Assembly: GCA_008632985.1 (NCBI GenBank)
Contig: QPGO01000288.1
Coordinates: 1-64,000 of the forward strand
Length of the DNA stretch: 64,000 nt
Origin: Psammoneis japonica
Taxonomy: Eukaryota
Direction of reading: 5' to 3'
Both the position numbers and the translations under genes were made by a program. Positions 25,916-63,500 of this stretch are shown here, one piece after another (position 1 is the stretch's first letter; each line of letters opens with the position of its first letter). The notes beneath the pieces are model-generated. The model was not told the DNA's origin, did not search any database, and was given only the letters and a program-made list of their open reading frames with translations.

Positions 25916-26962
25916 CATCTCCAAATCTGCTCCATGGCTGCCATGCCCCCTTGACAATGGGGGTGGCAATTCAAAGAGGTGTGTGCTGTTCTCAAGACAG
26001 AGCTCATTCTTCATGCAGCGACCGGCTGTTGTGGCTCTGGCACAGAAATGTTCTTGTGAAGTTTTTGAAGAATGGCTCATTTTTGACTTGTGCACAAGCC
26101 TGTGAATGACATGATCACCTTGTGCTCTAATGCAAAGCATTCTGGGAGGAAGGAAACTTTGTTGGGGGAATCCTCAAATGGATTGCTCTTTTTTGTGAGC
26201 ACTGCTCGTCTGTTGTGACTTGGCTCTTGTTGGCGGGGCAGGGTGTGGCTCGATTTGGGGTGCCCTTGCTTTGGGTTTCATCAGGTTTGCGTGCTTCATT
26301 GCAAGAATTTGTGCTCTGTAATGTGAGTCTGGTGCACAGCTCCTGTGAAAAATGTGTGTGTCAGCGGTGCTTTGCCAAAGTGCTTGTGACTGTTCTTGTT
26401 TGCAGCAACTGAGGAGCTTCGCCAACTCCAAGCAATCAAGAGGAAAAGAGCTGGATGTTTTCAAATGATGTGGGGCTGGTGACCCTGATGACTTGAGACT
26501 TTTGTTGAGGTTGGCTTCTTTGGGATGATGCGACATCAAAAGTGTTGGCTCATGAGTCAATTCATCCGAAAACAAACATCTCCCAGCAGCTCTGACGTCA
26601 AAGGCTCAAGAATTGTCTCTTGCCTTCACCATTGGGCTGTGGTTCATTCTGCCCTACAGCAGCTAGCACTACTCTCTACTCTCTACTAGAGAGTAGAGAA
26701 CTCTACTCTGCAGCTGAATGCTCTACTCTGCAGCTGGTCTTGTCCATGTTCTTGTGCACGATTCTGCTTCTGCGAGCCATGCGAACCACTGTACAGTGGG
26801 GCTACTGTATGAGAACTTCCGATTTGAGTCGTTTCTGAGTCGTGCTTGACTAATAAATATATTCAGGTCCGTAGTTTCTTTTGTCCTCTCTGATCTCGGG
26901 CCGGTCTCACGTCTCACGTACGTCCTGGGTCCTGTCGTCACAAAAAGCACCGCTAAACGAAA

Positions 26963-36433: not shown

Positions 36434-37249
36434 TACACAATCCTTGCCTTGTTGTCACAACGGCGTTACGTATGGGTACAATGCTCTCAGCAACACAAGT
36501 CTGTTCACGCCGTTTTGTTTGTTGACTTCTGTCGTCAATCGCGGTCTGCGGCTTTGGAGCTTTTCGCATCCACTTCTTGCGATCTTTTCCTCGCGCGCGA
36601 AAATCTGCCGGGAAAAAGGCGCGCACGAGCTCCGAACGCGAAAAAGGCACGAGGCGATGTCTTTCGAGCCCATTTCCACCTCCTGATTTACCTGACTTTC
36701 GCTTCTTGTCGGTGCTCCCCTCCATCGTTGCTGGCAGATGATGGCAGATAGAGGCAAAAGAGTTTGATGAAACAAAAAAGAAAAAAGAGAGAGATAAAGA
36801 TTGAAGATGAGAAATGAGGGTCTGGGGTCGTGGGTGGGTGTTGTTCTCGGTGTCGTCGGATCGGAACTTTGTGACCTGATGACATCATCATTCCACCAAA
36901 AAACAGGTGAGGTCACTAAAAAATCATGGCGAGAGGGCAACAGGTGCATTGTTGTTGCATGCTGTAACAACTGTTCCCCTCACTGACACCCACTTTGTCT
37001 CTGTTGATCACACAGCCCAACGTGTCTTGTTTGAGCCTGATGCGACGACTGCGTTTCGCAGTTTGGCTTGTTCTCATTTTCTTGACATGCAACACTGACG
37101 CATTTTTAGAACCTTTTTGATCTCGCTCCACTGGCAGCTTTTGTTGCAATCCAACAACTTCTGGTTGTTCAACATGGACTTTTGACGATGGAGCCTGCAA
37201 GGAGAGAGCATGGTTCATGCGCCAGCAGCATCAAACGTGCTGGGCCGTG

Positions 37250-39752
37250 AAGGGACAATCTCATGAGGCCCGGTGGCAAAATCGATTCCAAGAACTGGTT
37301 GAGTTTCACGAGAAAAATGGGGACTTTTGTGCACCCACAAAGACTCCTTTGGGTGCGTGGACAATCAGACAATGAAAGGCATGCCGAAAAAAGTTGCAAA
37401 ATGGCAAATCAGTGCTCACCGATGCTCAGGAAGAACAGCTTGGAGGAATTGGATTTAATTTCGAGTCATCAGGACAAACTGATCAGTGGAACCACATGTT
37501 TGACACGTTGTTGGAATTCAAGGAACTTCATGGCCACTGTCGTGTCCCGCGGCATTGGGTCACGAGACAGCGCAAGACTTGCAAGCATTGTCAAAACAAA
37601 AGCAAGCCTTGCTCAATGACTCCAGATTGTGTGAGAGCTCTAGAAGATGCAGGGTTTGAGTGGTCATTGCCAAAAAGAGGTGGTCTCGACCATGACAGGT
37701 GGGACCGCATGCTCGGCAAATTGTTGGAATTCAAAGCTGTTCATGGCCACTGTTGTTCCCAAAGCATTGTTCGGAAAATGAACACCTCGCACTTTGGGTC
37801 ACAAGACAGCGCAAGACTTGCAAGCATTGTCAAAACAAAAGCAAACCTTGCTCAATGACTCCAGATCGTGTGAGAGCTCTGGAAGATGCGGGATTCGAGT
37901 GGTCACCCAAAAAGGGTCCGGATTCCGATGGGAGTAATTGGAAGCGCATGCTTGATGAATTGTTGGAATTTAAGGCCAATCATGGGCATTGCCATGTGCC
38001 TTGCAACTACGTTGAAAACAGACGCATCACACGTTGGGTCACAACACAGCGCAAGAGCTGCAAGTGTTGTCAAAACAAAAGCAAACCTTGTTCAATGACT
38101 CAAGATCGTGTGAAAGCTCTGGAAGATGCCGGCTTTGAATGGTCGGTTAAAATGGGTCTGGGTCTCAACGAGAGTGCTTGGAAGTGCATGCTCAACGAAC
38201 TGCTGGAATTCAAAGCTGTTCATGGGCATTGTCGTGTCCCACAGCATTGTTTGGAAAACAAATGCCTCGCACTTTGGATCAGAACACAGCGCAGGAGCTG
38301 CAAGCGTTGTCAAAACAAAAGCAAGCCTTGCTCAATGACTCCGGATCGTCTGAAAGCTCTAGAAGATGCAGGGTTTGAGTGGTCAATGCCGAGAAGAGGT
38401 GGTCTCGACAATGACAGGTGGGACCGCATGCTCGATGAATTGTTAGAATTCAAAGCTGCTCATGGACATTGTCGTGTCCCAATGTCTCATTCGGAAAACA
38501 AAAGCCTCGCACTTTGGGTCATGACGCAGCGTAGGAACTACAAGCGTTGTCAAAACAAAAGCAAGCCTTGCTCAATGACTCCAGATCGTCTGAAAGCTCT
38601 GGAAGACGCAGGATTTGAGTGGTCAGTGCCGCGAGGAGGGGCTTTCGACAATTCCAGTTGGAATCGCATGCTCAACGAACTGTTGGAATTCAAAGCTGTT
38701 CATGGGCATTGTCGAGTCCCAACATCTTATTCGGAAAACAGGCGACTCGCACATTGGGTGATGAACCAGCGTGCATGCCTTAAGCGTCATCAAAACAACA
38801 AGCCTTGCCAGATCACACCTGATCGCATAAGACAATTGGAAGATGCAGGATTCGAGTGGTTTCGCAGAGACGCTATCAGCGAGGAGTGGAATTTGATGTT
38901 AAATGAGCTGTTGAAATTCAAGGCAATTCATGGCCATTGTCGTATCCCGCAGCATTGTTCGGAAAAGTTCTAACTACAAGAAGTTTAAAAACAAAGAGAA
39001 GCCTTGTCCCATGACGCGTGATCGGATAAGTGCATTGGAAGATGCCGGATTTGAGTGGTCGGCAACAACGCGGAAATGGAATGACTGGTTCAATGAGTTG
39101 TTGGAATTCAAAGCTACGCATGGGCATTGTCGTGTCCCCAATGACTCAGAGAATAAAGCCCTGTGTCGTTGGGTTGCGAGGCAACGTACGATTTCAAAAG
39201 CTGTCAAGACAATACCCAGCCATGCGCACATTGACGACAGACCAGATAAAAGCATTGGAAGATGTAGGATTTGAATGGTCGGTACAAGGAAAGGTATGGT
39301 ATGTTATGTTTGATGAGCTTTTGCGATTCAAAGCCATTCACGGGTATTGTTGCGTGCCAAATGTCTATCCGGAGAACAAACGACTCGCCCGGTGGGTTTC
39401 TCAGCAGCGAATACATTACAAGCGTTACCAAAACAAAAAGAAGCCTTGTTCAATGACGCCGGGTCGCATTAAAGCATTGGAAGGAGCTGGATTCGAATGG
39501 TCAGCGCAAACGAGTAATTGGAATGCCATGTATGATGAGTTAATGCAATTTAGAGCTGTTCATGGACATTGCCGTGTGCCAACCAACTACTCGGAAAACA
39601 AGCGCCTCGGACATTGGGTCGCGACCCAGCGTAGAAGTTACAAACGAAGTCAAGATAAAAAACAGCCTGGTTCATTGACTTTGGAACGAATAGCTGCATT
39701 GGAAAATGCCGGGTTTGAGTGGTCAGCCTATACTGTAACCAATAAGGTTTAA
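37250..39752 (+). pseudogene. Tandem helicase-associated (HA) domain protein, about 11 repeats, copy 1 (frameshifted)
   Basis: Repeated WxxMLxELLEFKAxHGHCRVP...L..WV..QR...R..ALEDAGFEW at a period of about 220-240 bp. Frameshifts near 37755, 38965 and 39190-39230. Confidence 0.88.
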
Positions 39753-40418: not shown

Positions 40419-41401
40419 AGAAAAGAATCTTGTCTGATTCTCACGACGAAAAGTAGCGGCAAACGCCTCGTAATCGACGTAGCCTAGTGGACGCATGACC
40501 TCGTCCCAGCTACTTTTCAGAAACTCAATGGCCGCTGGATCCATCTCTTGTGGATGTGGATTCACCACCACTTTGGCCCCTGGAGACAACTGAGATAGAT
40601 CTCTGACCCGACCCAGTTGCTTGGCCCTCTCGTATGGCTCATCGAACTTTTCAAGATGAGTAGTCATGTACTCCTTGGTGCTCATGCTTGCAACCTGTTG
40701 AATGAGCTCGTCTTTGCATCAATGTCCATAAACTTGGCAAGCATCTGTATTGACGGGACCACGTCTTTCAACATGTCCTCATAAATCAAAACCAACACGG
40801 AAGGACAATTCAGTAGTGTATGGTACTCGCGGTAGTAATCCCAGAGGCTTGCCCGGCTTCCATCTTGTTTGCCCTTGACAAACGGCGTTTCACGAACAAA
40901 GGTGGACAGGTCCATTCCAACTACAAGAGGTACTTGTTTGGCAAGCAAAAAATTGTAAAAGGATAGTGCCGTCTTTGACGGATCCCTAATTGTAACAACA
41001 TACTTGCACCCTCGGTAGATGCTTGCCATTCGCAAATGTGATTTGAAGACTCGAGGAAAGAATCGACTTTCGTTTGGATCATATCCGATGTCCCAGCTCA
41101 ATGTAGGCCATGGTACAACTTCATAAATGTTGTTGAAATCCACGTGACCACCCGTTCGAAGCTGATGACAAATCCAAGTCACAAGGGTTGTGCCCGTTTT
41201 CGGAAAAGTGGCAACGATAACATCGGTGGGTTTCACTGAAAATTCTTCCACAGCTTTTCTTACAGATTCGACCGACATCATGGAATCAGGATGACCAATA
41301 GGTACATAACCTAGCTCTTTCGGGAGAGGACATGGAAGCTGCTGCTGAAGATCAGAATCATCATTGGGCGGATTGCTACTCGCACTGGTGCGGCTCGTCA
41401 T
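40413..41401 (-). CDS. Cytosolic-type sulfotransferase (Sulfotransfer_1)
   Basis: DVIVATFPKTGTT (5'-PSB loop), RVFKSHL, IRDPSKTALSFYNF (3'-PB), LIYEDM. One frameshift near 40714 restores ..DELIQQVASMSTKEYM. Confidence 0.88.
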
Positions 41402-41574
41402 CGTCACTTTTCGGTGCGGTGTTGTGCGGTGGCGGTGTTGTGCGGTGCGTGCGGAAGTGCCGTGCGCGTGACTCACCCACTCGTGACTCAAAAACAGACA
41501 CCATCCCAGCATCATTCAACTTTGACTCAACTGTGCCACAGCACATGTGGTCCCCTGTTTGCATCTTAACTGGT

Positions 41575-42095
41575 GCAAAGTCCCTGTCAATCTCTTTTGA
41601 GGCTGGCTCAGCCATCTCTTTTTCTGCAGCTGTAGCTTTGTCTTTCGCAATTTGCACTTCTCCCATGCAAGCAAAATTGAGGCCTGTTTGTTTCCGTTCA
41701 GTCCACCAGAGCAGAGGTTTCCACTCATCACCAATTTCTGGTCAGTTCTTGAGAAGAGAACAAAATTGCAGATTGTGTTGCGAGGGCTTGTTGTTCAAAT
41801 GCAAACAGCGTGAAATGTGTCGTGTTCATGCTCTGTCAAAGGACAGCTGTTGGAGCTGAGACCTGCTTCACAGCCAATGAAGATGAGCAGCAATGCCGAT
41901 TCCAAAAGTCGGTTGACTTTGAGGAGAAGAGTGGGCATTTTGTTGCATCAACAAGCTCTCCTTTGGGCTGTTGAAGTGACAAGCCAACAACACAAGAGAG
42001 CTCACTTGAAAAAATCGAGCAATTGCAAATCACCTGTTGCAGAAGAGCCCAGCTGAAAGACATTGGTGTTGACCTTCACCAACCTCCCTGAGATG
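41575..42095 (+). repeat. Third, truncated and more degenerate copy of the HA-gene 5' region
   Basis: Colinear similarity with 61185-61650 (aagtccctgtcaat..gctggctcag..gcagaggtttccactca..ctgagacctgct..tttgggctgttg..gagcccagctgaa). Confidence 0.75.
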
Positions 42096-42099
42096 TTGG

Positions 42100-45000
42100 T
42101 GGAGGTAAAAAGGATGGTGCAGACCAACAAACAAGGTTGCTTTCCAACTCTTTTTTTTGTGGACCAAAGTGCGCTGCCGCAGCATGAGGTCTCAACTTCA
42201 AAAGAGTTTGGCTGGCACCTGCAAAGATGGCTGAGTGTTGTGACCTCTCCCGTCCACAAGTCAAGCGCTGGCTGCAGGTCAGAGAGGGCTTCATCAAACT
42301 CCAGAATGACCTGGTCTCTGTCACTGTGATCTGCTTTTTTTGGGGGGGGGGGGGGGGGGGCACCGCTCGTTTCTGCCAATGAGCTGGTGCTCAAACTTGA
42401 GCTGCATGTCAAATGAGGCAAGGAATGGGCAACTGAAGTGTGGAGTGATTGAGCCAAATGTGCCAAACTTTGTTGCACATGTGTTGGCTGCTCTGCACCT
42501 CAGAGCAATCCATGCCAGGCAGCACTGCTGTTGTGTCAGCAATCCAAGGGTGGTGAGCATCAATGCGCTGCCCTTTCTTCTCGTTGCTCTGGTGCTTGGG
42601 GGATTGTGACATGTCATGCATTTGCACAATGATGCAACACAATGAACACAGCATGAAAACATTACATCATGTGTGCAATTTGTGTAAAATGTGCTTGTTG
42701 CTGGCAAATCTCTGCCGGTGGAGAGATTTGCTCCAAGGGAGCGGCACTTGCAGCTCTGTTGTGACAGCAACTCATCACAAATTTCATTGTTGGAGGTTGA
42801 GATTTTTTCCCCTCTCTGTCCACTGAGGTTGAGATTTCCCCCCATCTGTCCACAGATTGAGTGCAAGAAAAAAAGGAGTTAAAAGTCAACATTGAACTTT
42901 CCAAATTGTTGCAAGAATGGTCTCCCAGAGCTTTTGGTGAGTGCGCCATCCAAAACAAAAATTGTGCAAATTGTTTGTCATCCACATCTGAGAACCTTTC
43001 ATTTGACGCATTTTTGATGCAAGCATGCTCAAGTCTGGTGGTTGAAGGCTTGACAAATGGTTGCTGTGATTCACAAGCTCAGCCATTTTGGTCTGCTCAA
43101 GATCCCAAGGTGATCCAGCCCTCCAGACAGAACAGCAAAGCTGTCCAGCACATGGCTGGCATTGAGTGACCCCCTTGTGCCAGGGAGGTGCCTTCCACAC
43201 CCCACTTTGGAGACTCAAACATCATCTAGCCAGTGCAGTGCTGTGATTGTTGCCAGAGCAAAAAATTGGCTGTTGTTGTTTGAACTTTTCTGTTGTTTGC
43301 TGTTTTGGACATTTCTGCACTTCAGCAACTTCTCAGATGTTTCAGGTGCTCTCCCATCATTGGCAAATTTGCATTGCTGTTCCCTTTCTCAATGGCTTGC
43401 TGCAGCCACTCTCAACTTTGCTGCTGAGTGAACTGTGGCAACTGGAAACACCACCTTCACTGTCCTTCTGTCCATTTGGCTGGCATCACAGAACTTCCAT
43501 GCATGAAGAAGTGTCTCTCCCATTGTCCTTTTGTTCCTTGGAGTGTGCTCACTTGAAAGCACCACTTCCAAGCACTTTCTTGAGCTTTGATGCCATCCTC
43601 ATGGCCTGTCTTTGACTGAGATTTTTGCAAGCATCAAAAAAGATTGTTGCTTGCTTTGGGGGCTGAGGCACCACTTTGGCAAAGAGGTGCACTTGGAGAG
43701 TGCATCTGAAAAAAGTGCTGTTGCAGCAACTCTCAAGCTTGTCAAACAGCTCATTGACCTGGTGGTTGAACTCACCATCTTTGTCAGCAAAGACCACACC
43801 TCGGTTTTGCACAACTCTTGTGCAAAACAACCTTTCAAAGTGAGCACCACAGAGCTTGTGGAGGTGGCTGATCTCTTCATCTGCAAGCTTGGTTTTGTCA
43901 ACTTTTCTTTTGCAAATGCTTTCATGGCTGAAAGAAGCCTTTCTGAAGGGTGTCTGAGAAGTTGCTTGTGTTGCCAGGAAACTCTTCCACAAGAAACTGG
44001 GGCCATGACTCAGCTCTTGTGCACCTGCTCAGCACAAGAACCTCCTGCCAATGCACTTTGTGGCAGACTTCTGTTTTCCCAAACAGGGTGTTGATGTGGA
44101 GATGTGATCAAAAAAACAAGTGGAAAAAAAAAAAGTAATGTGATCAAACCCTGAAGTGAACATGATGTTGGCTGGTGTCACCTTGGAAGTCAGGGGCAAA
44201 AACAAATCCTTCCCCAGAGTTTATCTGCAAAGGGGCATTTGTGCCTTCTTTCAACAGCTCAGCCATGCTATCATTCTGTCCAATGATGTGTTGACTTTCT
44301 GTGTGGCAAGTTGCTCACTTTGAGGGAAGGATTTGTCAATGTTCTTGTTTCTGAAATTTGCAAGCTCCGCAATTCTTGAGGGCCAAACTGGTGCAGGCTT
44401 CAGGGCCTTTCTGAAGAAACATTTTTTCTGTCTTGCTTTGTTGTGCAAAGATGAACGGAGCTTTGAAACTGGGCTTCTTGTTGTGGGATTCCCAGTTCTG
44501 AGCTGTGATGGAGTTGCCCCTCTGGCGCAGTCTTCACAACAATGTGGCCTCAAACTCAGTTTGTTCCTTTGTGCTGCACAAGCTGAACAGAGCCTCTTGT
44601 GCTTGCAAAGGTCATTGTGCGGGTGCAAGGAAGCAATGTGCTTTGTAGGCAGCAGTTTTCACTTGATCATTGTGCTGGCAGTTCAGGCAAACCAGCTTTT
44701 CTCAAACTGTTTTCTCCCACTTGTGGCCAGCTGGGCCTCTTGACAAAATGGCTGCAAAGTGAACAAATGCAGGCACCCTCACAGTGCTTGTAAACTGCAT
44801 TTTTTTCATTGTCAAAGAGAGAGCAGACTCCCATTGCCCATCCAACTGCCAGGCACCAGCAATGTCATCCAGTGCAACCCTGCTGCAATGGTCTGCTCTT
44901 GAGATGAGCTGGGAAACTCAGAGGAAGAACTGCCCCACAGCAAGCTGGCTGGGGGGCAAGGAGAGAAAGCCAGCTTGACCCAAGACCAGCAGAGGTTCTT

Positions 45001-48000
45001 GGCCAGGGGGGGGGGGGGGGGGGGCATCTGCCCCAGTCTCTGGGCACTTTCCTGGTGCTGGTGGATGATGACAACAACTGCATCACCTGGGCTCTGTGGG
45101 CTGCAGCTTGGCTGACCCCACCTTGACACCAATGGCAAAAACAGCTTGAGCAGACACAGACAAAAGCTCCAGCAAGATGGGGAGGTGCAGGGCTTGTGCC
45201 CTTCATTTTGTTGACCATTGCAACAGCGCCCTTTTGCACTGATCAAACTCCACCCCACCAAGCCACAGCAAATTGAGAAACAACACCCACCCTCAGAAGG
45301 TTCGCCATCTGAGGCACTCATGGTTGAGATGAGGGGGCTTTTCACAAGTGTTGATTGTTTCACACAAACAGGAGTTGACATTTTCTGTTTGAAACAAAAA
45401 ATTGGGCCTTTACATCTTTTTTGTGGTTTCCTCCACCAGTGCAAACACTGTGAGCATGCCAGCTGGATCAGGAGTGACTTGGCTGCCTGCAAAGCAGAAG
45501 TGGTAACAACCAGGTGTGAAAATTTTTCCACACAAACTCTGCAAGAGAGTCCTGCAGAAGTGGTTTTCTGTGCACAAGAAATTTCCAGATGCAAAAGAAA
45601 AACAAGTGCTGTCAAATTCTTTGCATGGCCAGAATTGTTGCTGAGATTTGGTGAAGAGCAGAAAGCAAGAGAAAGAAAGAGTTGGGGGTGTGGCACAGAA
45701 AGCAAACACCTGTTGGTCAGTGCTGATGTGCCACCTCATTGTTTTGTGGTTCCATGTGGTGCAAAAAGGCATGTGGATTTAACACAGTGGTGCAGTTTGT
45801 GCTGGGGAGTTTTGCAGGACTGAACAGAGAAGCACCTTTTAAACTGTTGCTGTGCAGATGTTGGCACAAATTGCCGCAATGCATGCTCAAACCACTTTCC
45901 ACCATTGGTTTGGTTGTGAAATTTGTGCACTCTGCACATTCTTTGTGCTTGCAAGAGGGCAGCACAAGTCAGTGAATGAGAGTGCAGCCAAGAAGTGTGC
46001 AGCAAGAATTGACCATTTCCCCTCCCAGTGTGTTTTTCCTTTTGTGCAACAACTGTCAAATCAATGTGAAATTGTGCAGCAAGAAAAAAACGTTTTAAAT
46101 GCTGACAAGCACCCCACCACAAATTTGTCCCTCGGCTCAACAACCTGCTGGCCACACAAGTGTCAACGACTGTTCCTTGGGATGAACTGGCCTCCAACTC
46201 AGCTGCTCAGCACTTGCAGCATGACCCAGGTGCATCAATGTCTGATGCGTCTGCCACCCACCCCAGACCAAGGCTGTTGCCTCACATTTGAGGGTGGATC
46301 ATTGAGCAGAGGCACATTTTGAGCAGCTCATGATTTTGCAATTTTCCTTTTCTTCATTCAAGTGTTGCATCTGAGCACACCCCAAACACCAGTGAGTGCA
46401 TTTCTGCTCCTCACCAGGGCTGTGCACATGTGAGCTGCACTTGCCAGTCTTCAAGCACCAATTGTTGGTTTTGGCATGGTTGTTGTGCTCAACAAACTGC
46501 TGCTTTTTTTACACAACTGCGCTGCTTGGTTGGTGTGGTGTGGCAGACAAGCCAGAACAACTTTCCAGAAAATGCCAACAGCAAGCATTTGACTGGCTGA
46601 ACACATTGTGCAGTCACAACCATCATCCGCATGCTCTGTGGTGTCTCTCACAAACAATGGACAAAACTCAACCTGCAACTGAAATTCTGTTCAGGCAAAT
46701 GTGCACATTTGGCAAGATGCGCACCCTTCTTTCAGACCTCTTGAAAAACAGGCCTCTGCTTGACAATCCTCAATCCATTCTGAACTTGGACAGATTTCAG
46801 CACAAAGCTGAAATTCAGAGAAAAGGATCTTTGAACAATGACTGCACAATTTGAACAAACGAGAGGTCAAAATCAAGTGCAAAGTGCAGTCATTTGCAGT
46901 TGCTTGAGAGGAAGCAGTTGAAAATTCTGCATTCTGACAAATTCTGAGGCAGCCACAGCCTGTGCTCAGCACTCACCAACAGAGCAACAACATGACAGTG
47001 ACACAAATGTCATTCATTGAATGTGATGATGTGATTGGCATCAAATTTCAGCATGCATGTAAAATTTGTCAGTGTCTCAGCATTTTCTTTTGTGCTGGTG
47101 AGTGTCTCTTGGCCTCTTGGCTGGTTTGTGGCAACAAAGGCATGGGCAGTGAAGTGACAATCAAAAGATTGATTCACTTGGCTGCTGGTTTTTAAGATCA
47201 CATCTGTTGCAAGAGGTTTTAGAGCACTCAGGTTCAGAAGACAGGAATCCCAGGGTGGCATGTGTCAGTGAAGAGGTGCAACAAAAACAGCAGCACAATG
47301 AAAAGCTGAGGTGCACAAAGCAGTGGCAGTGGTTGCAGTCAGAACCACTCAAAGGCCTGTGTCCAAAACAGGATCCAAAAAGGGAAACTCCTCAGATGAC
47401 ACAGCACTGGCCTTTGTGGTTTCCAACACACCACACAGGGCAATTTTTGCACCATTTTTTTTCTGTTGAGGAGTGCACAGTGGGGGGGATGTCATGCAAA
47501 CATTGATCAAAATGAAGCAAGTGGAACAAAAATGACAAAGCCACCCATGACAACCAGAAAGCATTGGTTGGCAGCATCTGGCATGTCACAAACAAGTGCT
47601 GCAGCCCATCATGACCTCAGTCAGCCAGCTCTCCCCCAAGAGTTTTTGGTCTCAAAAGTGCTGCAAAAAAGCACCCACTTGTTGTGAGTGCCAAGCTGCC
47701 CCACAAAAGAACTCTGGAATGCCAGATTTGCTTAAAAGCAGTGCCAGGGCCCCAGTGGAAATGCCAAGAAAGTCCAGAATGTGGTGAATTTTTGATGTCC
47801 CTGGCACTGATTCTATGCTGGAGCACAATTTCTGCACATTCCAGACTTTTTTTAGCTTTTTTGCTGGGGCCCTGGTGATGCTTCCATGCAAATTTGACAT
47901 TCCCGAGTTTTTCTAAATGGCAGCAGGCTTTGGATCCTCCATGTGGGCAGTTTGGGACATGCCCTTCTCCATGCTGTGGCACTTCAAATTCAAAGCCTTT

Positions 48001-49200
48001 TGCATGGCTGCTCTTCACTGTGTCATGGCACCCCCTCTGTTCTCCACCACACCCTCTCCCAGCAAGGCACAGCAGCACCTGCATTGCAAAGCAACATCAT
48101 GGTCAGACAGCAAGCAGCAGAGAACAAAAAGTTGCAGCATTTGCAGCTCCCACCTTGCCAAAAGCAAGCATTTCTGCTGTTGCACAGATGTCAGCTCCTT
48201 GGGGGGCAGGCAAATGCATCGTGATGTCCTTGCCACTTGTGGCCATCAGGTGCTGTGCTCTTCTCTGCCATCATGGAAGCTTCACATCAAGCACACCTTG
48301 TGTTCCTGTTAGAAACAGCTTCTTGCAGTTGTTTGACAATGTTTGTGCTGCTCCAGCTCCATCTCTGACTCTGTCTTGCTCCTGTTTGTTCCCACGTTGA
48401 CTGTCTTTTGAGTTCAATGCAGCAGCAGCACTTGGTGTGGCAAATGCCAAGATGTGCTCCAGACCCTCCAAGATGACATGCATCACACTGGCTGCATGTG
48501 ATGAGGGATGAACAAGTGGCTCTTGGCTGAGAATGTGAGGTGCATTGCTTGATCCAGACACAAGGGGGGCTGCCCCCCCCCCCCCCACTTCTTGGTGCAG
48601 CAAGCTGGCAAGTTGCTGCCAAATCTTCAAGTGCTCTCAGCAAACCAACAGGCCTGCTCAATGAGCCCATGCCCTCACCAAAAATGTCATGCTTTTCTTG
48701 AAATGAGCTTTGTCCTCACTCAGAGGCCAGATCTTTGGAAAGCAAGACTTGCTTGCAGCTCATTGCTTGAAGCTCTCATCTCTCTGTTTTTGTCCTTTGC
48801 TCCTCCCAGCTGCCCCCCACCAATGCTTGACCAGCAACAACTTGGCTGAAGATTTTGTGTGCATTCATTGGAAGTGACCACCACAGACAATGGCCACGAC
48901 CATGATGCACGGCATTTGGCTTGGCAACTGGAAAGTTGTGGCTTGACTGCAATGAGTGGCACAACACTGGTGAAAAATGGCAGTTTGTCAAATGAGAACT
49001 GCACCAAATCCAACAATTGGCACTTGAGGTTGACAAGTGCAGTTCACATGTGCTCCGAGCAGGTCTGAACAGCCCTGATGGGGGGCAGACACACAAGTGT
49101 TTTGGGTGCTCAGATGCATCGCAAAATGACACGGGCGAAGTGCAGGAAAATTGGGCTGCTGCCAGTGCCATCCGGTTGCGCAGGAGCACCTCCTACTTAT
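42100..49200. mobile_element. Nested degenerate repeat/TE relics, families unassigned
   Basis: CpG and TpA nearly absent; many Tyr-free spurious ORFs. A TIR-like motif tgatgtggagatgtgatca at about 44092 is shared with 23612. Confidence 0.55.
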
Positions 49201-50806: not shown

Positions 50807-51398
50807 GTTATTTTTTAGTATCGTTCATCAATCGAAAGAATGCATGGGAGGAATCAATTCGACCAAGATGCAATGTATCGTTTCTCTTTTCTTGGTGAAC
50901 TTGGAATAGTAAGTTCCGTCCTGTTTGCTTGGTGTGTTGGTGTTGGGTGTTGAGTGTTGCTTGTTGCTTGTTGGTGGGAGTGTATGTTGAGTGGATCTTT
51001 TATGTACTGTCGAGAGCTCGAACTCACGTACTGTACGTATGTAGATTTTGGGGGGGCGTCTTTGGAAGTGAGATCGTCGAAGGCGGTCTGATCGCCAGTG
51101 CGTTTGGGGTTTTCCCAGTACAATTTGTACGCAAAAAAAACACGTAGGATCTGTCCAGAGGTCCCAAATACCCAATCGCACTGATTGACAGACTGTTTTA
51201 GTACAAAATCTACGTAACTTTCTTCGACAGTCTCACTTCCGAAGACGTCCCCCAATTTTGTACTGTGACATTCACGCAAAAAAGCGCGACAAAAGCAAGA
51301 GGATCTATCATGGTGCATTATCGGCAAAGATTTCATGATCGTGGCTGGTTGACGATAAGCCCATAACCCACATCAACAAATTACTTCGAGCCAAAGTA

Positions 51399-51599: not shown

Positions 51600-54500
51600 T
51601 TACATGTTCATTTGGAAATGTCAATTGGTTTTCTCTCTCTCTACATTCAATGCTCGCAACAATGCTGGTTTTCAGATCTCTGCATGGGCATCCAATCAAA
51701 ATGGACAATGCACACCTTTTGCAGCAAAGACAAATCAACCCATCTGGCATTGCAGCATCCTTTCAATCCACACTCAACAGAGGCGAGCACACGCCAAAGA
51801 CTTGCAGAGAGAACAAAAGGCTCTTGAGCACACAAAACAAGAACAGAGTTGATGCACCCCTCTTGTTTTGAAGCTTGGGCCCTCAAGTGGCACATGGTTT
51901 GGCTGGCTCTGCAGCTGGTTGGGAGGTTGATGGCTTTTTCATGACTCACAGCTTGAGGCTTCTTGTTGGCACACGAGCTCGCCCGTGCAATGTTGCCTTT
52001 CGAGCCTGCTGCTTGCTGGAGCTGAGATCATGTGGACAGCTCTCCACATGCCTGGGCTTTGTCATTCAAATGCTCAATCACAAAATCATCTTCTCTTGCA
52101 CTGTGGCTGCTTGGCTTTCATCAACAAAATCTGCAGCAGCCCAGGCCATCCTGAGCACTCGTGACAAAACAGCTCTCCTGCAAAACCCTTCTGCTTGTCC
52201 CTTCCCCCCCAGAGTGGTTCTTGGCAACAGCGCCACCCACAAACCAAGCTGCAGTCACGACTGTTTGCTGAGCTGCCAGCTGAGAAATTAAAACCAAGGT
52301 TGAGAGCCAAGCATGAGACCTCCTGTGAGATGTTCCCGCAACAAGCCTCTCCACAAAGCCGTGCTGCACATGGGGTCTGAAGCAAGAGGCACATGTTTTG
52401 ATGCACAAGCACATGTGCAATGTCACCTTTGGAGCACGCTGCTCACTGGAGCTTGAGCAGAGGACAGCTCTCTGTGTGCAAACCATGTCTGTCAGATGCT
52501 CAGTCACAAAACATCTTCTCTTGCTGTGGCTGCTTGGCTTCCATCAAAAGAAAGTTCCCACAACCCAGGCTGCCCCAGCCACCATTGACAGAATGGCTCC
52601 TGCAAAACTTTTCTGCATGTTTCCCTCCTCCCCTGCAGAGCTGCTCTTGGCAACAGTGTTGTCTGCATGCCAGGCTCCAATCAAGATGGTCTGCCAAGCT
52701 GCACCAGCTGAGATGCCCAACTTGAGTTTGCAGGCTCCCAGAACCACAAGACACACAGAGGGCAGCAATGCACATCTGGTGCTGGTGGCAATGCTGAGCT
52801 CTTCATTTGCAGCTTCCCAGGGGCACACCCACACCTTCAGAACACCAGCACAACCACAAGAGTTGCCCTCCTTGTGCAGTCACAACAGCACGTTGCACCA
52901 TCTGCAAAAGGAGTGCAGGCAGCCTGGCTCCTGGGCTGCATGCTGACCCCACATGCCACAGCTTTTCACAGCTGAGCAAGAGACGCCAGTGTTTCAAAAA
53001 CCCTGAGCCAAGGTTGGAGCTGGCAGGAGCTTGTGTCATTGGCACCCCCAATGCCACAGCTGCAAAATTGCACACAAGCCTCCTCAAGCTCGTGTTTGTC
53101 ATTTGTTGGCACAGCAGAACAACTTTGAGCTTGCTGTTGGCACAAAAAAGCTCTGAGTGAGGTTGGGCCCAAGAGTCATTGAGCATGCTGAGTGCACAAC
53201 CTGAGACATGCCAGCAACAAAACTCTCTGCACAGCAATGCAGCCAGAACCTCTCTCACTCTTCTCTCAAGAGCTTGCTCAGGACAACACACCAGGGTTTG
53301 GAAAGCAAGCAGCCAAGCTTGCATGTTTTTCTTCTCCCTGGCCCTCCCCAGATGCAGCCTTTGAGCCAATGGTCACCCTGAAGTTGCAATGTGCACCCAG
53401 CTTTTGCCCCTGTGGCAACCACCCCAGACCACAAAGAAGAAGCCAATGAATCTCTGGCCCTGCTTGCATGGTCAATTTTTGTGTGCATCGAATGGTTGAA
53501 TCCCCTCCTTTTTCCCTTTTCCATTGATCGGCCACGAATGTGAAAAAATTGCCGCATTGTGAGAGTGATTCAGCCGTGCCAATCAGATCAGAAGCTTCGC
53601 AGTGAGCGCCAACCTCTCACGCTCACGTTGGCAACAAATCATTGCATTGCGTGGTGCAACCTCGCTGCCGGTGCAGCACACCCTGTGAGATGACTGGCAC
53701 AAACGAACATCTTTCCGAGAAACACAACAAACACCACCATGCAGTTTTGACCTTTGATTTCACAATCATCCAACAAAGAACAATGGCACCAGGCAGGCAC
53801 CAAGAAAAGTTCAAAGCACAAGAAACAAAGTGGGAAGAAGTGGGCTGTGCTTTGAAAACCCAGGAGCAGCAGCCAGACGACAGCAGAGAGAGAGGAAGAG
53901 CAGAAAAATTGCTGAAAGATTTTGGCTCTCAGCAGTGGCACCACAAGCACTCAAGTCCCTCCCAGCACAGAGAAAATGATCTGCAAGAATTTGTGGGTGC
54001 AGAAGCACGGCAGCAGAGCCCACAGAAAGGAGGGGTGGGAAGCCCCCAGCATTTGTTGACCCCCCCTTTTGTTCCTGAAGGTGACAAGAGAGAGTCTGGG
54101 TTGTGAAGATGCAAGTCAGCCCAAAGACACAAGTGGTCCCAGCAGCTTCATGCAAAATGATCTCTCAGGGTCATTTGCACTTGGCTCTGGCAAGCCAAAA
54201 AAGGAGGCCTCCTCGTTGGCAGTGCTCCAAGTGCAAAGTTGCTCATTGAGCAGCTGGTGCAAGAAAGTGAGTTGAGCACTCTTGCTGCAGATGCCCAGAT
54301 GTCAACAGCATGTTCTTGCCTTTCTTGACACTGCTCCACATCCTCGTGATGGGGGACCTGACAATGCCATGGCCAGCATCACCCAGCATGCTGTTGTTGC
54401 TGCAGATCTTGGTGCCACGGCATGTGGTCACCTGCGGGAAAAGAGGGAGGCACACACATGTGCAGCCAGGGGCATCTTTTGAGCAAATCCAGCCATGCTG

Positions 54501-55330
54501 TTGCCAGTCAGACCTTTTGGCAAAGACCATCAATGTTGCTAAAACAGAAGGTCAGTGTGCAAAGCAGCCTCACAACTGCTTTAGAGACCTTGTCCTCCCA
54601 TTGATGTGCCTCACCACCAGCATTTTTTTGATGCTGTGGGGTCTCAGCAGCTCAGGTGATGCCCATTTTCTCTTGCAGATTGTGAGAAGCACATGGCGCA
54701 CAACAGTTTTGCACACTGGGCTTTGGCCCAGAGCAGCAAGGGTGATCTGTGATCTGGGCACATGGGTGCAGCAGGCCACAAAGACAGACAGCTCCAAGCA
54801 TGCCAGAAAAGTGCGCACTTCATGCTCCACTCCTTTTTGTCAACCAAAATGTTGACATGGCTGGAGCACTCTGTCAATGAGATGAGACTCCACCCCAACA
54901 TTGTGCTTGGAACACAATGCAGTGGACAACCAGGGGCATGTTGTTGATGATTTTGAGGTGACACTTTTTTGGGTCAAAGTTTGATCAAAAAGTGGATGAC
55001 ACAGGCTGTGTGCCATGGCCCACAATGACTCACTGACACAGTGTGGACTCTCACAAGAGGTTGGCCATGATTTCATGTGAGGAGAATGGTTCTGCCCCTG
55101 TGAATTGCCCACTGGTTTCTTAGAGTTCCAGGTTGCCATTGGCAGCCAAAGATGAGCAAAGACAGATGGAAGGTCTGGCTGCTGCTCTCAGAGAGTGTCT
55201 GCCAGATTTCAGCTCACCAGCAGAGAGCTGGAGCAACAGAGGGTGTTCATTTCATTCAATTGTGAGAGGGAGCGAGTCAGGACTGCAGTGCAAAATGTTC
55301 AAAGAAGTGCAGAAGCTCTCTCGTGGAGGC
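51600..55330. mobile_element. Degenerate TE relic block, including a possible DIRS/Ngaro-type RNase H remnant (+ strand, ~54100-54600)
   Basis: Same composition signature. Residual order CEDAS..G / GSFALGSGK / HILVMGD..N-AMA / INVA..HNCFRD resembles YR-retrotransposon RNase H (DAS..G, LxxxDNxxA, NxxADxLSR). Confidence 0.5.
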
Positions 55331-60957: not shown

Positions 60958-61429
60958 GGTCAAGAATACCAACGTACCGGTAACCGGTAGACTATCTGAA
61001 TCTGGCAGACTAAAAGCCTAGATGCACGCAATGTCCGTTTGCCGACCTGGACCACGCGACGCGCACGAAACGCACACTGAACACGCAGCGCACATGCGAT
61101 CACATGATGAGCATGAACAAGCACTGCTGTACCAAGCACATTCCACTTCTGACGCAACTGTACCGCAGCATCTTACCTAAGTATGAAGTCCCTGTCAATG
61201 TCTCTTTGGAAGCTGGCTCAGTCATCTCTTCTGCAGTTTGTTCTTCGCAATCTGCTTCTGTGCAAACAAAAACGAGGCCTTTTCGCTTCTGGTTCAGTCC
61301 ACAAGCAGAGGTTTCCACTCACCACCCATTGGCAGATCGTGTTATGAGGATTTGTTGTTCAAACGTAAACAATGTTGAACGTGTTCGTGGGCTGTCACAG
61401 CACAACTAGAACTGAGACCTGCTGCAGCT

Positions 61430-63500
61430 CACAAAGATGAGTGGCAACGTCGACTCCAAGAGTTGGTTGACTTCAAAGAAAAGAATGGGCATCTCATTGC
61501 ACTGACAAGCTCTTCTTTGGGCTGTTGGACAAGCCAACAATGCAAGGGATTTGAAGAAAAATTGAGCAATCGCAAGTCACCTCTCACAGAAGAGCAAAGA
61601 GCCCAGCTGAACGACATCGGCTTCGACCTCAACCAATCTCCCCGAGATGCTCAGTGGCACCTCATGCTCAGCAAATTGCTGGAGCTCAAAGCTGGTCATG
61701 GACATTGTCATGTCCCATGGCATTATTTGGAAAACAAACACCTCGCACTTTGGGTCACAATGCAGTGCAGGAATTGCAGGTGTTGTCAAAACAAAAGCAA
61801 GCCTTGCTCAATGACTCTAGATCGTCTGAAAGCTCTGGAAGATGCAGGATTCGAGTGGTCAGTGCCGGGAGGAAGAACAGCTCTTGACAATTCCAGTTGG
61901 AAGCACATGCTCAATGAACCATTAGAATTCAAAGCTGCTCATGGACATTGTCGTGTCCCGCAGCATTGTTCGGAAAACAAACGCCTCGCACTTTGGGTCA
62001 TGACGCAGTGCAGGAATTACAAGCGTTGTCAAAACAAAAGCAAGCCTTGCTCAATGACTCCGGATCATCTGAAAGCTCTGGAAGACGCAGGATTTGAGTG
62101 GTCAGAGCTGCGAGGAAGAATGGCTCTTGACAATTCCAGTTGGAAGCGCATGCTCAACGAACTGTTAGAATTCAAAGCTCTGTTCATGGGCATTGTCATG
62201 TCCCAATGTCTCATTCGGAAAACAAACGCCTCGCACATTGGGTCGCAACACAGCGCAGGAACTGCAAGCGTTGTCAAAACAAAAGCAAGCCTTGCTCAAT
62301 GACTCCGGATCGTCTGAAAGCTCTGGAAGACGCAGGATTTGAGTGGTCAGTGCCGCGAGAAGAACGGCTCTTGACAATTCCAGTTGGAAGCGCATGCTCA
62401 ACGAACTGTTGGAATTCAAAGCTTTCATGGGCATTGTCGAGTGCCAACATCTTATTCGGAAAACAGTCGACTCGCACATTGGGTGATGAACCAGCGTGCG
62501 TTCTTTAAGCGTCATCAAAACAACAAGCCTTGCCAGATCACACCTGATCGCATAAGACAATTGGAAGATGCAGATTCGAGTGGTTTCGCAGGGACGCTAT
62601 CAGCGAGGAGTGGAATTTGATGTTAAACGAGTCATTGGAATTCAAGACAATTCACGGCCATTGTCGTGTCCCGTGTCCGTACTCTGAAAACAAACGGCTA
62701 GGCAATTGTGTCGCAACACAGCGTTCCGACTACAAGAAGTTTAAAAACGAAGAGAAGCCTTGTCCCATGACGCGTGATCGGATAAGAGCATTGGAAGATG
62801 CCGGATTTGAGTGGTCGGCAACAACGGGGAAATGGAATGACTGGTTCAATGAGTTGTTGGAATTCAAAGCTACGCATGGGCATTGTCGTGTCCCTAATGA
62901 CTCAGAGAATAAAGCCCTATGTCGTTGGGTTGCGAGGCAACGTACAGCTTTCAAAAGCTGTCAAGACAATACCCAGCCATGCGCATTGACGACAGACCGG
63001 GAAGAGCATTGGAAGATGTAGGATTTGAATGGTCGGTACAAGGAAAGGGATGGCATGTTATGTTTGATGAGCTTTTGCGATTCAAAGCCATTCACGGGCA
63101 TTGTCGCGTGCCGAATGTCTATCCGGAGAACAAACGACTCGCCCGGTGGATTTCTCAGCAGCGAATACATTACAAGCGTTACCAAAACAAAAAGAAGTCT
63201 TGTGTCTTGTTCAATGACGCCAGGTCGCATTAACGCATTGGAAGGAGCTGGATTCGAATGGTCACTGCAAACGAGTAATTGGAATGCCATGTATGATGAG
63301 TTAATGCAATTTAGAGCTGTTCATTGACATTGCCATGTGCCAACCAATTACTCGGAAAACAAGCGTCTCGGACGTTGGATCGCGACCCAGCGCAGAATGT
63401 ACAAACAAAGTCAAGATAAAAAACAGCCTGGTTCATTGACCCAAGCACGGATAGCGGCATTGGATAATGCCGGGTTGATGTCAGCTAGAAGAATCCTGTA
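61430..63500 (+). pseudogene. Tandem HA-domain protein, about 9 repeats, copy 2 (frameshifts and a premature stop)
   Basis: Same repeat motif. The 3' repeats are highly similar to 38640-39750; GGA>TGA at about 63325; several indels. Confidence 0.88.

Follow-up and report, generated by a model that had tools for sequence, protein, structure and literature searches.

About two fifths of the window, by which we mean the whole 64,000-nt stretch of the Psammoneis japonica assembly analysed here, consists of DNA in which nearly all CG and TA dinucleotides have been lost by transitions to TG or CA. The TA-depleted DNA amounts to about 25 of the 64 kb, and we consider it probable that it records a transition hypermutation, confined to domains, dependent on sequence context and composed of two separable arms, acting on a diatom nuclear chromosome. 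Literature searches on the phenomenon found no description of it.

Observed/expected (o/e) dinucleotide ratios were scanned in sliding 1-kb windows. Fully converted stretches lie at about 1.9-3.9, 19.1-26.6, 41.5-49.2 and 51.6-55.3 kb, with CG o/e of 0.02-0.25, TA o/e of 0.00-0.11 and TG and CA at 1.6-2.2; in the flanking genes CG o/e is ~1.0 and TA o/e 0.4-0.7. The ratios of all four dinucleotides agree with the initial annotation, which had placed CG- and TA-poor repeat blocks at these positions, and the two lines it gave as examples free of both dinucleotides (22021-22080 and 47281-47340) indeed hold none. With expected counts taken from the per-base rates of 35,206 nt of normal window DNA, the stretch 41500-49200 contains 28 TA against ~308 expected, 47 CG against ~423, and 1716 TG plus CA against ~1155, the TG+CA excess (561) matching 86% of the combined CG and TA deficit (656). 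The corresponding observed and expected counts are TA 25/300 and CG 52/412 for 19100-26600, TA 6/148 and CG 39/204 for 51600-55300, and TA 8/80 and CG 17/110 for 1900-3900, confirming that the depletion is real and far beyond chance.

Pooled over the block cores (19,904 nt), TA o/e is 0.04 (59 sites), CG 0.12 (135 sites) and TG/CA 1.82, compared with 0.58, 0.98 and 1.20 in the 35,206 nt of normal window DNA, while G+C is unchanged (0.481 in blocks versus 0.473). The longest run without any TA extends for 2251 nt (52289-54540); in normal DNA a TA occurs on average every 25 nt. TA is mildly low everywhere in the window, with o/e 0.53 in long ORFs and 0.73 in non-ORF DNA; the expectation that the blocks would nevertheless lie below other intergenic DNA was borne out, since non-ORF DNA outside them (17 stretches, 9,124 nt; TA o/e 0.73, CG 0.89) exceeds the blocks 18-fold in TA and 7-fold in CG. 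Borders are sharp to ~100 nt near 49.15-49.2, 26.6, 51.65, 55.3, 3.9 and 41.4 kb, which at 100-nt resolution recovers the boundaries earlier noted at about 49200 and 26640. The blocks also share, all four of them, a shift to ApT o/e 0.71 and GpC 1.35 (0.94 and 1.02 in normal DNA), with AA/TT not depleted (1.29). A simulation turning every CG and TA into TG or CA gives only GpC 1.09 and ApT 0.95, so a picture with these two rules is incomplete. This shift, two zones of partial CG loss, and CG-keeping, TA-free margins with one inner patch, described below, all lie beyond the initial annotation.

The bases were compared with a DNA run, X1, which possibly comes from the same sample as the assembled window and whose read accuracy is judged from its contigs, the longest of 315 kb, at ~60x depth. 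X1 contains a fraction 0.87 of the 1027 words sampled, and its contigs cover the main block at a depth of 50-136, compared with 55-68 on flanking genes. Over four block pieces they differ from the window at 19 positions in 5,612 nt; because contigs at single-copy depth match the block sequence, base-calling error is unlikely. Of 225 differences between run and window, 40 were listed, 14 of them inside blocks; of these 14, 12 set CG or TA against TG/CA. In four of those listed the window has TA where X1 has TG/CA, and in none the reverse, whereas CG goes both ways (four with CG in the window, four with CG in the run). These differences at leftover TA and CG sites suggest continuing change.

The main block (41400..49153) is TA-free from about 41400 and has a CG-poor core at about 41500-49100. 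On the right it stops where a multi-copy element ends: the bin 48616-49279 has an X1 depth of 359 against ~60 on the flanks (~6x), and behind 49153 six X1 contigs part from the window sequence. Depth over most of 41.5-48.6 kb is that of single-copy DNA. The second block (19100..26600) holds a tandem array of period 9 with 79 copies (25176-25914) and an inverted repeat pair, and the third (51650..55300), multi-copy over an initial 2.3 kb that reaches to about 53.9 kb, lies partly within a region of X1 depth 275-500 (51.3-53.9 kb; ~5-8x the ~60 on flanks). In the fourth (1600..3900) TA is lost from about 1600 and CG only from about 1900. Near the third block, TA-rich spacers reach 12 TA per 100 nt at 51.4 kb, and a 205-nt MITE-like element with terminal inverted repeats (51051..51255), represented at X1 depth 5227, ~87 times single-copy depth, with many loose contig ends at 51051 and 51254/51255, is unconverted, its CG and TA being normal, at a distance of 400 nt from a block. 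The blocks had been taken for transposon relics, a reading the family searches do not bear out: among 121 ORFs no Pfam family was found at E 0.01, a looser scan gave unrelated weak matches only, and these searches found transposon protein domains in none of the blocks. The 297-codon ORF at 44812..45705 on the minus strand, described earlier as lacking Tyr, has a count of 0 Tyr and showed neither a family match nor protein-like features. It is most plausibly an incidental product of the removal of TAA and TAG stops; the mean stop-to-stop length is 35 codons in the blocks, compared with 27.5 for normal DNA.

That the conversion took place in situ can be seen from duplicates within the blocks. 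Four such pairs differ by 132 transitions and 44 transversions, and at 28 of their 121 aligned YR dinucleotides one copy has CA and the other TG, compared with 3 of about 322 YR steps in a normal duplicate of the HA-domain gene considered below. The arms of an inverted repeat (46424-46508 and 48972-49053), possibly the termini of a DNA element of 2.6 kb running from 46424 to 49053, show 18 transitions and 2 transversions over 82 aligned nt, with CA versus TG at 6 of 21 YR steps; a tandem duplicate on the plus strand (51966-52308 and 52398-52736) differs by 72 transitions and 27 transversions, with 12 CA-versus-TG steps. These comparisons support a change of both CG and TA into TG/CA, by transitions and in place. 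The order of TG and CA shows no strand runs (runs test, z -0.98 to +0.61 in four blocks).

The window also carries copies of an HA-domain gene in intermediate states. In the first copy (PF03457, E 1.7e-89) the upstream part and five 240-nt repeats, here called 'A' repeats, form a partly converted zone on the plus strand (36500..38900) with TA o/e ~0.1 and CG ~0.7, the reading frame being broken near 37.7 kb and 38.97 kb; in the second, also on the plus strand, the zone (61200..62450) spans three 'A' repeats with several frame breaks. In both (36.5-38.9 and 61.2-62.45 kb) TA is poor and CG loss only partial, and both consist of the most similar tandem units of the duplicated gene, 70-90% identical. 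The 'B' repeats of the first copy (38754..39729, plus strand), duplicated at 62479-63477 at ~95% identity, keep normal TA and CG, so the 1.4-kb 3' duplicate to which they belong (38.7-40.1 versus 62.4-63.9 kb, 24 kb apart; ~95% identical over roughly the first 1 kb and 92% overall) has been spared. Counts are TA 66 and CG 110 in 1975 nt of 'B' units against TA 15 and CG 83 in 1928 nt of 'A' units, the latter leaning to block composition (ApT 0.82, GpC 1.26). In some 240-nt units the ancestral Tyr codons (TAY) of the repeats now read TGY or CAY, and other units retain them: at alignment column 26 the eight 'A' units have TG six times and TA twice where four 'B' units have TA, and at column 229 they have TG three times, CA twice and TA three times where five 'B' units have TA, changes from Tyr to Cys or His. 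Columns 96 and 183 of the 'A' units go in the contrary direction, from TG to TA, both making YTAR. The direction from TA to TG/CA is seen at a handful of sites. Differences between the converted 5' parts comprise ~57 transitions and 23 transversions (580 nt compared), those between the 3' parts 35 and 15 (about 1,000 nt), a similar ratio, so that the greater 5' divergence is not transition-specific. At the left end of the main block, 41561..42097 (plus strand) is a degraded third copy of the gene's 5' region, with 70% identity to 61168-61649, 89% in purine/pyrimidine coding, and 72 transitions and 20 transversions; it is host gene DNA converted in place.

TA loss follows a context rule that CG loss lacks. 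The retained fraction of TA in the blocks is 0.011 for ATA, 0.047 for GTA, 0.10 for CTA and 0.18 for TTA; the HA zones with partial conversion show nearly the same ranking (0.056, 0.090, 0.345 and 0.344), with CTA and TTA level. None of the 59 residual TA sites in blocks is of the class RTAY, as against 476 of 1407 in normal DNA, and CG retention is 0.09-0.18 without context order. The two losses are also uncoupled in space. In patches at 1600-1899 (TA o/e 0.06, CG 0.94), 36500-36699, 41390-41500, 53470-53720 (a patch of normal CG inside the third block) and 55390-55500, TA o/e is 0-0.1 and CG o/e 0.89-1.59, some of the TA-free margins being CG-rich (1.39-1.59). Since TA loss reaches patches that keep CG, it is a separate arm and not a by-product of CpG decay.

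In the explanation we favour, the affected domains, among them degraded copies of host genes and elements that are partly multi-copy, would be silenced or methylated. One arm would turn CpG into TpG or CpA without flanking preference, as from deamination of maintained 5-methylcytosine. The other would turn TpA into CpA or TpG, an A:T-to-G:C transition with the context order ATA > GTA > CTA > TTA on the T strand and TAT > TAC > TAG > TAA on the A strand; it is at least as complete as the first and extends 100-300 nt past the CpG-depleted core. Because both targets are YpR and only transitions occur, both arms end as TG/CA, which would be the target of neither, and the fall of ApT and rise of GpC would reflect a weaker push in the same direction. 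The independence of the strands, the partial states and the differences between assembly and X1 at leftover sites suggest a slow, continuing process, which may be linked to domain state and not to a single homology-triggered burst. The second arm would begin at a modified or damaged TpA base, and the favoured routes would be enzymatic thymine oxidation of TET/JBP type, its product mispairing with G, or adenine deamination by a TadA/ADAT-like enzyme.

A possible but unlikely alternative invokes no attack on TA: the loss would be a side effect of T:G-mismatch repair, an MBD4/TDG-like glycosylase that guards methylated DNA also 'correcting' replication G:T mispairs towards G:C, with the products of TpG-to-CpG change lost again by deamination and a net visible loss of TpA. 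Very short patch repair and CTAG loss provide a bacterial precedent (PMC5337935). This would require no new enzyme class and accords with the broader A:T-to-G:C push (ApT 0.71 and GpC 1.35; 0.82 and 1.26 in the HA 'A' units), and a weak-to-strong push in unmethylated DNA would agree with the TA-free margins, whose CG o/e is 1.39-1.59. However, TA is lost also in CG-rich, presumably unmethylated patches, where no concentration of the glycosylase is expected, AA/TT is undepleted (1.29), and the steep 5'-base dependence (ATA 0.011 versus TTA 0.18) is to our knowledge no property of MBD4/TDG-like glycosylases; nor do we know of such a TA purge in vertebrates, which combine dense CpG methylation with MBD4 and TDG. 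More doubtful is an acute, homology-triggered, RIP-like process, in which duplicates would be sensed, perhaps ahead of meiosis, and a dual-specificity enzyme would mutate them in a single round or a few, its cytosine arm derived from the RID-related DNMT4 that many diatoms have (PMC9998398). Sharp borders, near-complete conversion, multi-copy block parts (48.6-49.3 kb, ~6x; 51.3-53.9 kb, ~5-8x), a block edge at a repeated element's end, and partly converted zones in the most similar tandem units (70-90%) would all suit it, but the HA 3' duplicate, ~95% identical over its first ~1 kb, is untouched, the ~87-copy MITE is unconverted, though it is possibly too short, single-copy depth prevails over most of 41.9-48.6 kb, TG and CA are mixed at random, free of strand runs, partly converted states and the X1 differences suggest ongoing change, and TA destruction at unchanged G+C is the opposite of RIP. 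The second, repeat-targeted TpA transition put forward in the initial annotation accordingly survives in part: change of TA to TG/CA in place is seen in duplicates, Tyr codons and four X1 sites among those listed, while repeat targeting is not borne out, the 1.4-kb duplicate and the MITE being untouched and most of 41.5-48.6 kb having single-copy depth.

An untargeted origin, in which a genome-wide neutral spectrum removes CG and TA and the blocks are the oldest selection-free DNA, is very improbable; the mildly low TA throughout the window (0.53 and 0.73) and the lack of recognisable genes in the blocks are in keeping with it, but non-ORF DNA outside them stands at TA 0.73 and CG 0.89, the switch occurs within ~100 nt, and a high-copy non-coding MITE and TA-rich spacers adjoin a block. 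We give still less credence to an artefact in which modified bases were misread or the consensus mis-polished and the true sequence keeps CG and TA. Systematic miscalls could give the 12 of 14 listed differences of CG/TA against TG/CA, and X1 and the assembly possibly share a sample, but the X1 k-mer contigs (~60x) give the same CG/TA-free sequence, differing at 19 of 5,612 nt, and 31-mer contigs of up to 315 kb would be impossible from error-prone reads. Polymerase-based reads see 5mC as C and modified T as T, the listed CG differences run both ways (four and four), and a uniform miscall would not produce CA-versus-TG differences between in-block duplicates. Least credible of all is foreign, for instance viral, DNA or selection against CG and TA. 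Some viruses avoid CpG and UpA jointly, and protein and family searches gave no match to the blocks; against this, host-gene-derived DNA shows the same conversion, the blocks lack coding capacity for selection to act on, a TA o/e of 0.04 removes all Tyr codons and two of three stop codons, and CA-versus-TG discordance between duplicates shows decay after duplication.

Among known systems, RIP in Neurospora and other ascomycetes resembles the blocks in its dense transitions within sharply bordered stretches, its destruction of coding capacity, and duplicates left differing mainly by transitions. RIP changes C to T, mostly at CpA, which makes TpA and lowers G+C. The blocks, by contrast, have an A:T-to-G:C arm, TpA loss, G+C unchanged at 0.48, a spared near-identical 1.4-kb duplicate and no strand runs; classical RIP was rejected because TA is destroyed and not made, G+C is unchanged, and that duplicate and the ~87-copy MITE are untouched. 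Decay of methylated CpG, as in vertebrates, methylated transposons and DNMT5-maintained diatom CpG, likewise yields TpG/CpA in restricted domains without flanking preference, but it leaves TpA alone, whereas here TpA loss is the stronger (o/e 0.04 versus 0.12 for CpG), precedes CpG loss in partly converted zones and enters CpG-keeping patches. The initial annotation was therefore right that RIP and 5mC decay alone leave the TA loss unexplained. A-to-I deaminases (ADAR hyper-editing of retroelement RNA; TadA/ADAT and the base editors derived from them) prefer a 5' U or T, and the natural target of TadA is U-A-C. Their A-to-G outcome, the T before A and, for TadA, the fit of U-A-C with the favoured TAY are likenesses. 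They act on RNA, however, and on DNA only after laboratory evolution, and ADAR, an enzyme restricted to animals, prefers a G after the A; in the blocks, conversion affects both strands and reaches DNA that is no retroelement (a host-gene fragment), with sharp genomic borders.

Diatoms carry DNMT5, and DNMT4, a methyltransferase family related to RID and described as without known function, occurs in 31 of 60 species (PMC9998398), a further likeness to RIP. CTAG is considered to be purged from the genomes of E. coli and its relatives by very short patch repair, which acts on T:G mismatches (PMC5337935, citing Bhagwat and McClelland 1992); the process in E. coli and Salmonella resembles the blocks in that a TA-containing word disappears by T-to-C change, there incidentally to the countering of 5mC deamination (PMC5337935). 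That system is bacterial and tied to one methylase motif, with mild genome-wide loss of one tetranucleotide, CTAG, whereas here CTA/TAG is among the better-kept contexts and depletion is near-total and confined to domains. Dinoflagellate DNA carries 5-hydroxymethyluracil in place of T, with a preference for TA and TC; the modified base occurs on repeats with 5mC and silences transposons (PMC11572971), so that an alga of the SAR lineage does mark TpA, by a thymine dioxygenase of TET/JBP type. The portion of PMC11572971 drawn on here reports no mutational purge of TA, and in diatoms the modification is only hypothetical. It would nevertheless offer a ready-made means of marking TpA in silenced DNA, and the blocks described here point to a TA-directed DNA mutation process.

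Four stretches of the window, at approximately 1.9–3.9, 19.1–26.6, 41.5–49.2 and 51.6–55.3 kb (the blocks), are depleted in both CG and TA. In 1-kb windows the observed/expected (o/e) ratio in the four blocks is 0.02–0.25 for CG and 0.00–0.11 for TA, with TG and CA raised to 1.6–2.2, whereas the genes show CG ratios of ~1.0 and TA ratios of 0.4–0.7. For the interval 41500–49200 we count 28 TA against ~308 expected, 47 CG against ~423, and 1716 TG plus CA against ~1155, the expected counts being derived from the normal DNA of the window; the combined CG and TA deficit of 656 is 86% covered by the TG and CA surplus of 561, and the remaining three blocks show the same pattern. The longest run within the blocks lacking TA is 2251 nt, and TA o/e is 0.04 in block cores against 0.58 in normal DNA, with G+C unchanged (0.481 in the blocks versus 0.473 in normal DNA). 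The initial annotation had pointed to two 60-nt lines, 22021–22080 and 47281–47340, as free of both dinucleotides and to the 297-codon ORF 44812–45705 as lacking tyrosine; neither line contains CG or TA, and the Tyr count of the ORF is 0. Its own refuting condition, TA no scarcer in the relics than in the remaining intergenic DNA, does not hold, with ratios of 0.04 versus 0.73 for TA and 0.12 versus 0.89 for CG when 19,904 nt of block cores are compared with 9,124 nt of non-ORF sequence from elsewhere in the window. The sharpness of the borders is confirmed, as composition passes from block to normal within ~100 nt.

The order of TG and CA along the strand is random in the blocks (z between -0.98 and +0.61), which implies that both strands were hit independently. 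ApT (0.69–0.83) and GpC (1.20–1.40) in all four blocks lie beyond the values of 0.95 and 1.09 obtained by simulated conversion of every CG and TA in normal DNA to TG or CA, so either a weaker push from A:T to G:C also acts at ApT or the two-rule model is incomplete. The second block holds a 79-copy array of a 9-nt unit (25176–25914, consensus TTTGGCAAC) that has neither CG nor TA and in which TG and CA are unequal (o/e 1.4–1.5 and 1.9–2.25, respectively). The same block contains, at 19350–21848 on the minus strand, an 833-codon frame with no family match and six stops, all of them TGA. This frame could be the remnant of an extended coding region in an ancestor, or could have arisen by chance where TAA and TAG are lacking.

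The window is diatom nuclear DNA; the ORF at 7059–8729 encodes an FGAR amidotransferase with 75–81% identity to named proteins of Cylindrotheca, Fragilaria, Fistulifera, Thalassiosira and other diatoms. Genes in the normal parts include PurL, Mog1, an acyltransferase, an SMC/Rad50-like ATPase, a sulfotransferase, ligand-gated channel domains and, present twice, a gene composed of helicase-associated (HA, PF03457) repeats, and Rfam and tRNA scans of the window returned no matches. A second sequencing run, X2, labelled DNA by guess, omits two short intragenic stretches, 36250–36366 (which ends CT..AC, that is, GT..AG on the minus strand) and 49848–49971, and so behaves like RNA, marking two introns. 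X2 was placed only on normal genes, with no cover on the blocks, and is uninformative on expression.

The composition of the blocks is reproduced in X1, a coded DNA sequencing run that may derive from the assembled sample itself. X1 contains 0.87 of 1027 sampled words from 40500–50400, and its k-mer contigs have depths of 50–136 on the 41.5–49.2 kb block versus 55–68 on flanking single-copy genes. We read X1 as accurate, polymerase-read data because its 31-mer contigs extend up to 315 kb at ~60x depth. In polymerase-based reads 5mC appears as C and a modified T as T, and given the accuracy attributed to X1 the loss of CG and TA is unlikely to be a read-out error. X1 differs from the window at 19 sites in 5,612 nt over four long block pieces, versus 3 in 4,321 nt over three normal-flank pieces. 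Among the 14 block differences listed, 12 set CG or TA against TG or CA; at four the window has TA and X1 has TG or CA, with the reverse at none of those listed. As TA sites make up ~0.6% of block bases, the listed differences appear to fall on leftover TA sites far more often than this share would predict. Exactly at the left block border (41505/41506) one X1 contig carries 39 additional letters, possibly an insertion/deletion difference between X1 and the assembly.

Duplicated sequences show that the DNA of the blocks was altered in place. At the left end of the 41.5–49.2 kb block, the HA gene's 5' region recurs a third time in degraded form (41561–42097); aligned with 61168–61649, this copy is 70% identical in letters and 89% identical in purine/pyrimidine class, with 72 transitions and 20 transversions. 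Four further duplicate pairs lie within the blocks: two are inverted repeats, one is a 230-nt palindrome and one a tandem duplicate. Taken together, these pairs show 132 transitions and 44 transversions, set CA against TG at 28 of 121 aligned pyrimidine-purine steps, and also show CG against TG or CA. The unconverted HA duplicate has CA against TG at 3 of ~322 such steps. Adjacent double transitions from CA to TG are what is expected if a single ancestral CG or TA was resolved independently in the two copies. Neither blastn nor a blast in purine/pyrimidine coding, for which only matches above ~100 bits were used since E-values are invalid in that coding, matched the four blocks to one another, and the searches returned internal duplicates and the HA copy only.

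The loss of TA follows a context rule of its own. None of the 59 residual TA in the cores stands in R-TA-Y, versus 476 of 1407 in normal DNA, and Y-TA-R is best retained. The retained fraction in block cores rises from 0.011 for ATA/TAT through 0.047 for GTA/TAC and 0.10 for CTA/TAG to 0.18 for TTA/TAA, and in the partly converted HA zones (36.5–38.9 and 61.2–62.45 kb) it is 0.056, 0.090, 0.345 and 0.344, respectively; the favoured products are RCA/TGY. CG retention is 0.09–0.18 with no context order. The loss of TA is also uncoupled from that of CG: in the HA zones TA o/e is ~0.1 and CG 0.63–0.74, and at 1600–1899, 36500–36699, 41390–41500, 53470–53720 and 55390–55500 TA is 0–0.1 and CG 0.89–1.59. 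Two separable transition processes have thus acted, both confined to the same domains and both ending at TG/CA. Patches rich in CG (o/e 1.39–1.59) lie exactly at block edges, adjoining the starts of flanking genes, at 36500–36699, 41390–41500, 55390–55500 and 61000–61099; three of the four have no TA and the last retains it (o/e 0.54). These patches resemble unmethylated promoter islands flanking the converted DNA.

The HA gene, a ~3-kb unit duplicated 24 kb apart (36900–40130 and 61000–63900), bears on the direction of change. Its copies carry eight TA-poor 240-nt 'A' repeats, recently amplified, and eight complete and two partial 220-nt 'B' repeats of normal composition; the 'A' units have 15 TA and 83 CG in 1928 nt and the 'B' units 66 TA and 110 CG in 1975 nt. 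At two conserved Tyr codons where 'B' units have TA, the 'A' units have TG six times and TA twice (alignment column 26) or TG three times, CA twice and TA three times (column 229), so that some repeats now have Cys or His in place of Tyr and others keep Tyr. The reverse change, TG to TA, is seen at columns 96 and 183, where the products are CTAG or TTAG, and counts against this direction. A change from TA to TG/CA in the blocks is thus suggested by few sites. Homologues in the protein database reach 39% identity at best, and with variable spacing blurring the position counts these weakly suggest a Tyr ancestry for the converted codons. The converted 5' parts of the HA copies have diverged further than the 3' parts; we rejected their excess of transitions as specific evidence, because transversions are raised equally. 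A DNA profile of the HA units found none in 42.1–49 kb. In the 'A' repeats the reading frame is broken near 37.7 and 38.97 kb in one copy and several times within 61.5–62.6 kb in the other, so both copies, or at any rate their 5' halves, may be pseudogenic.

Several known processes can be weighed against these data. Across 41500–49200 the CpG deficit is matched by an excess of TpG and CpA, as methylation-driven CpG decay predicts; as the whole cause it fails, since TA is more completely lost, has its own context rule, and is lost also where CG is kept. Fungal-type RIP introduces C-to-T and G-to-A transitions, chiefly at CpA, raising TpA and lowering G+C; it targets duplicated DNA above a threshold of length and identity, spares unique DNA, and needs a RID/DNMT4-type enzyme and a premeiotic stage. 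Some converted DNA is indeed repeated, as the HA units are tandem repeats and parts of the blocks are multi-copy, and one survey reports a RID-related DNMT4 in 31 of 60 diatom species (PMC9998398). Phaeodactylum is a diatom without DNMT4. The process in the blocks is nevertheless not classical RIP: RIP creates TpA and lowers G+C, whereas here TA is destroyed and G+C holds steady. The HA 'B' parts, which form a 1.4-kb duplicate with about 95% identity between copies separated by 24 kb, are unconverted, and a 205-nt MITE-like element at 51051–51255, with ~23-nt terminal inverted repeats, ~87x single-copy depth in X1 and many different flanks, has normal CG and TA 400 nt from a converted block. 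By X1 depth most of 41.9–48.6 kb is single-copy, and only 48.6–49.3 kb (~6 copies) and 51.3–53.9 kb (5–8 copies) are clearly multi-copy; the right block edge at 49153 is the divergence point of six X1 contigs. No Pfam family was found at E 0.01 among 121 stop-to-stop ORFs of at least 80 aa, a looser scan (E up to 5) of 83 ORFs of at least 100 aa gave unrelated weak matches only (E 0.012–2.7), and a protein database search with ORF 52329–52943 gave 162 candidates, none at E 0.001. As no transposon protein domain was found in any block, the description of the blocks as transposon relics stays an assumption; the two inverted-repeat pairs may represent the termini of elements. A low-power scan for codon periodicity in purine/pyrimidine coding, aimed at ancestral reading frames, gave median best scores of 4.2 for normal DNA, 1.8 for the blocks and -0.4 (maximum 5.7) for shuffled sequence, and exact-pattern scans of metagenome contigs with one block stretch and with the MITE end gave no matches. 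We also rejected ADAR-type hyper-editing fixed through reverse transcription: TG and CA fall at random, with no one-strand A-to-G clusters (z -0.98 to +0.61); ADAR-type editing prefers G after the edited A, and TAG is among the better-retained contexts (0.10 versus 0.011 for TAT); a host-gene fragment is converted; and no reverse transcriptase domain was found in the block ORFs.

For the CG arm we infer deamination of 5mC; in diatoms DNMT5 maintains CpG methylation on transposons (PMC9998398). For the TA arm we favour a lesion or modification that would be placed at TpA in putatively silenced chromatin, where a TadA/ADAT-like enzyme might deaminate adenine or a TET/JBP-type dioxygenase might oxidize thymine. 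The natural target of TadA/ADAT is U-A-C, which fits the TAY preference of the diatom TA loss, and oxidized thymine mispairs with G. In dinoflagellates 5-hydroxymethyluracil is found preferentially at TA and TC, on repeats and together with 5mC (PMC11572971). The main rival is a repair bias, in which a T:G glycosylase guarding methylated DNA would fix replication errors towards G:C, and it has a precedent in very short patch repair, held to deplete CTAG in enterobacteria (PMC5337935). Margins that are TA-free yet CG-rich, and the steep dependence of TA loss on the 5' base, favour instead a directed lesion. We also know of no comparable TA purge in methylated vertebrate genomes. On these three grounds we lean towards a directed lesion at TpA over repair bias, which sequence alone cannot separate. 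The fullest form of this reading, which we regard as possible rather than probable, is a natural chromatin-targeted diatom mutator running from A:T to G:C, in which an enzyme would oxidize thymine or deaminate adenine at 5'-RTA-3'/5'-TAY-3' in putatively silenced domains and, with 5mC deamination at CpG, would form a two-armed genome defence.

A literature search within journals open without subscription found no account of CG and TA being lost together in the repeats of diatoms or other algae, and a search on thymine modification likewise yielded none. The signatures of genome defence or decay known to us (RIP, CpG decay and APOBEC-type editing) all lead from G:C towards A:T. A mutational process that purges TpA from restricted domains by A:T-to-G:C transitions, under a trinucleotide rule of its own, would be new. 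Such blocks, which make up ~40% of the window, defeat similarity searches for transposons and yield long spurious ORFs that mislead gene callers, and because G+C is unchanged they would be missed by screens based on G+C or RIP indices. Were an enzyme responsible, it would be a natural adenine- or thymine-directed DNA editor, of interest to the base editing field. Diatoms are an ecologically dominant algal group, and the TpA purge may indicate that they possess a novel activity that modifies or edits DNA. If the proposed mutator exists, it would turn repeats and defunct gene copies into scrambled DNA that is rich in TG/CA, with G+C unchanged and two of the three stop codons erased. Among natural systems that edit A:T to G:C at the DNA level it would be the first, and it would mirror RIP.
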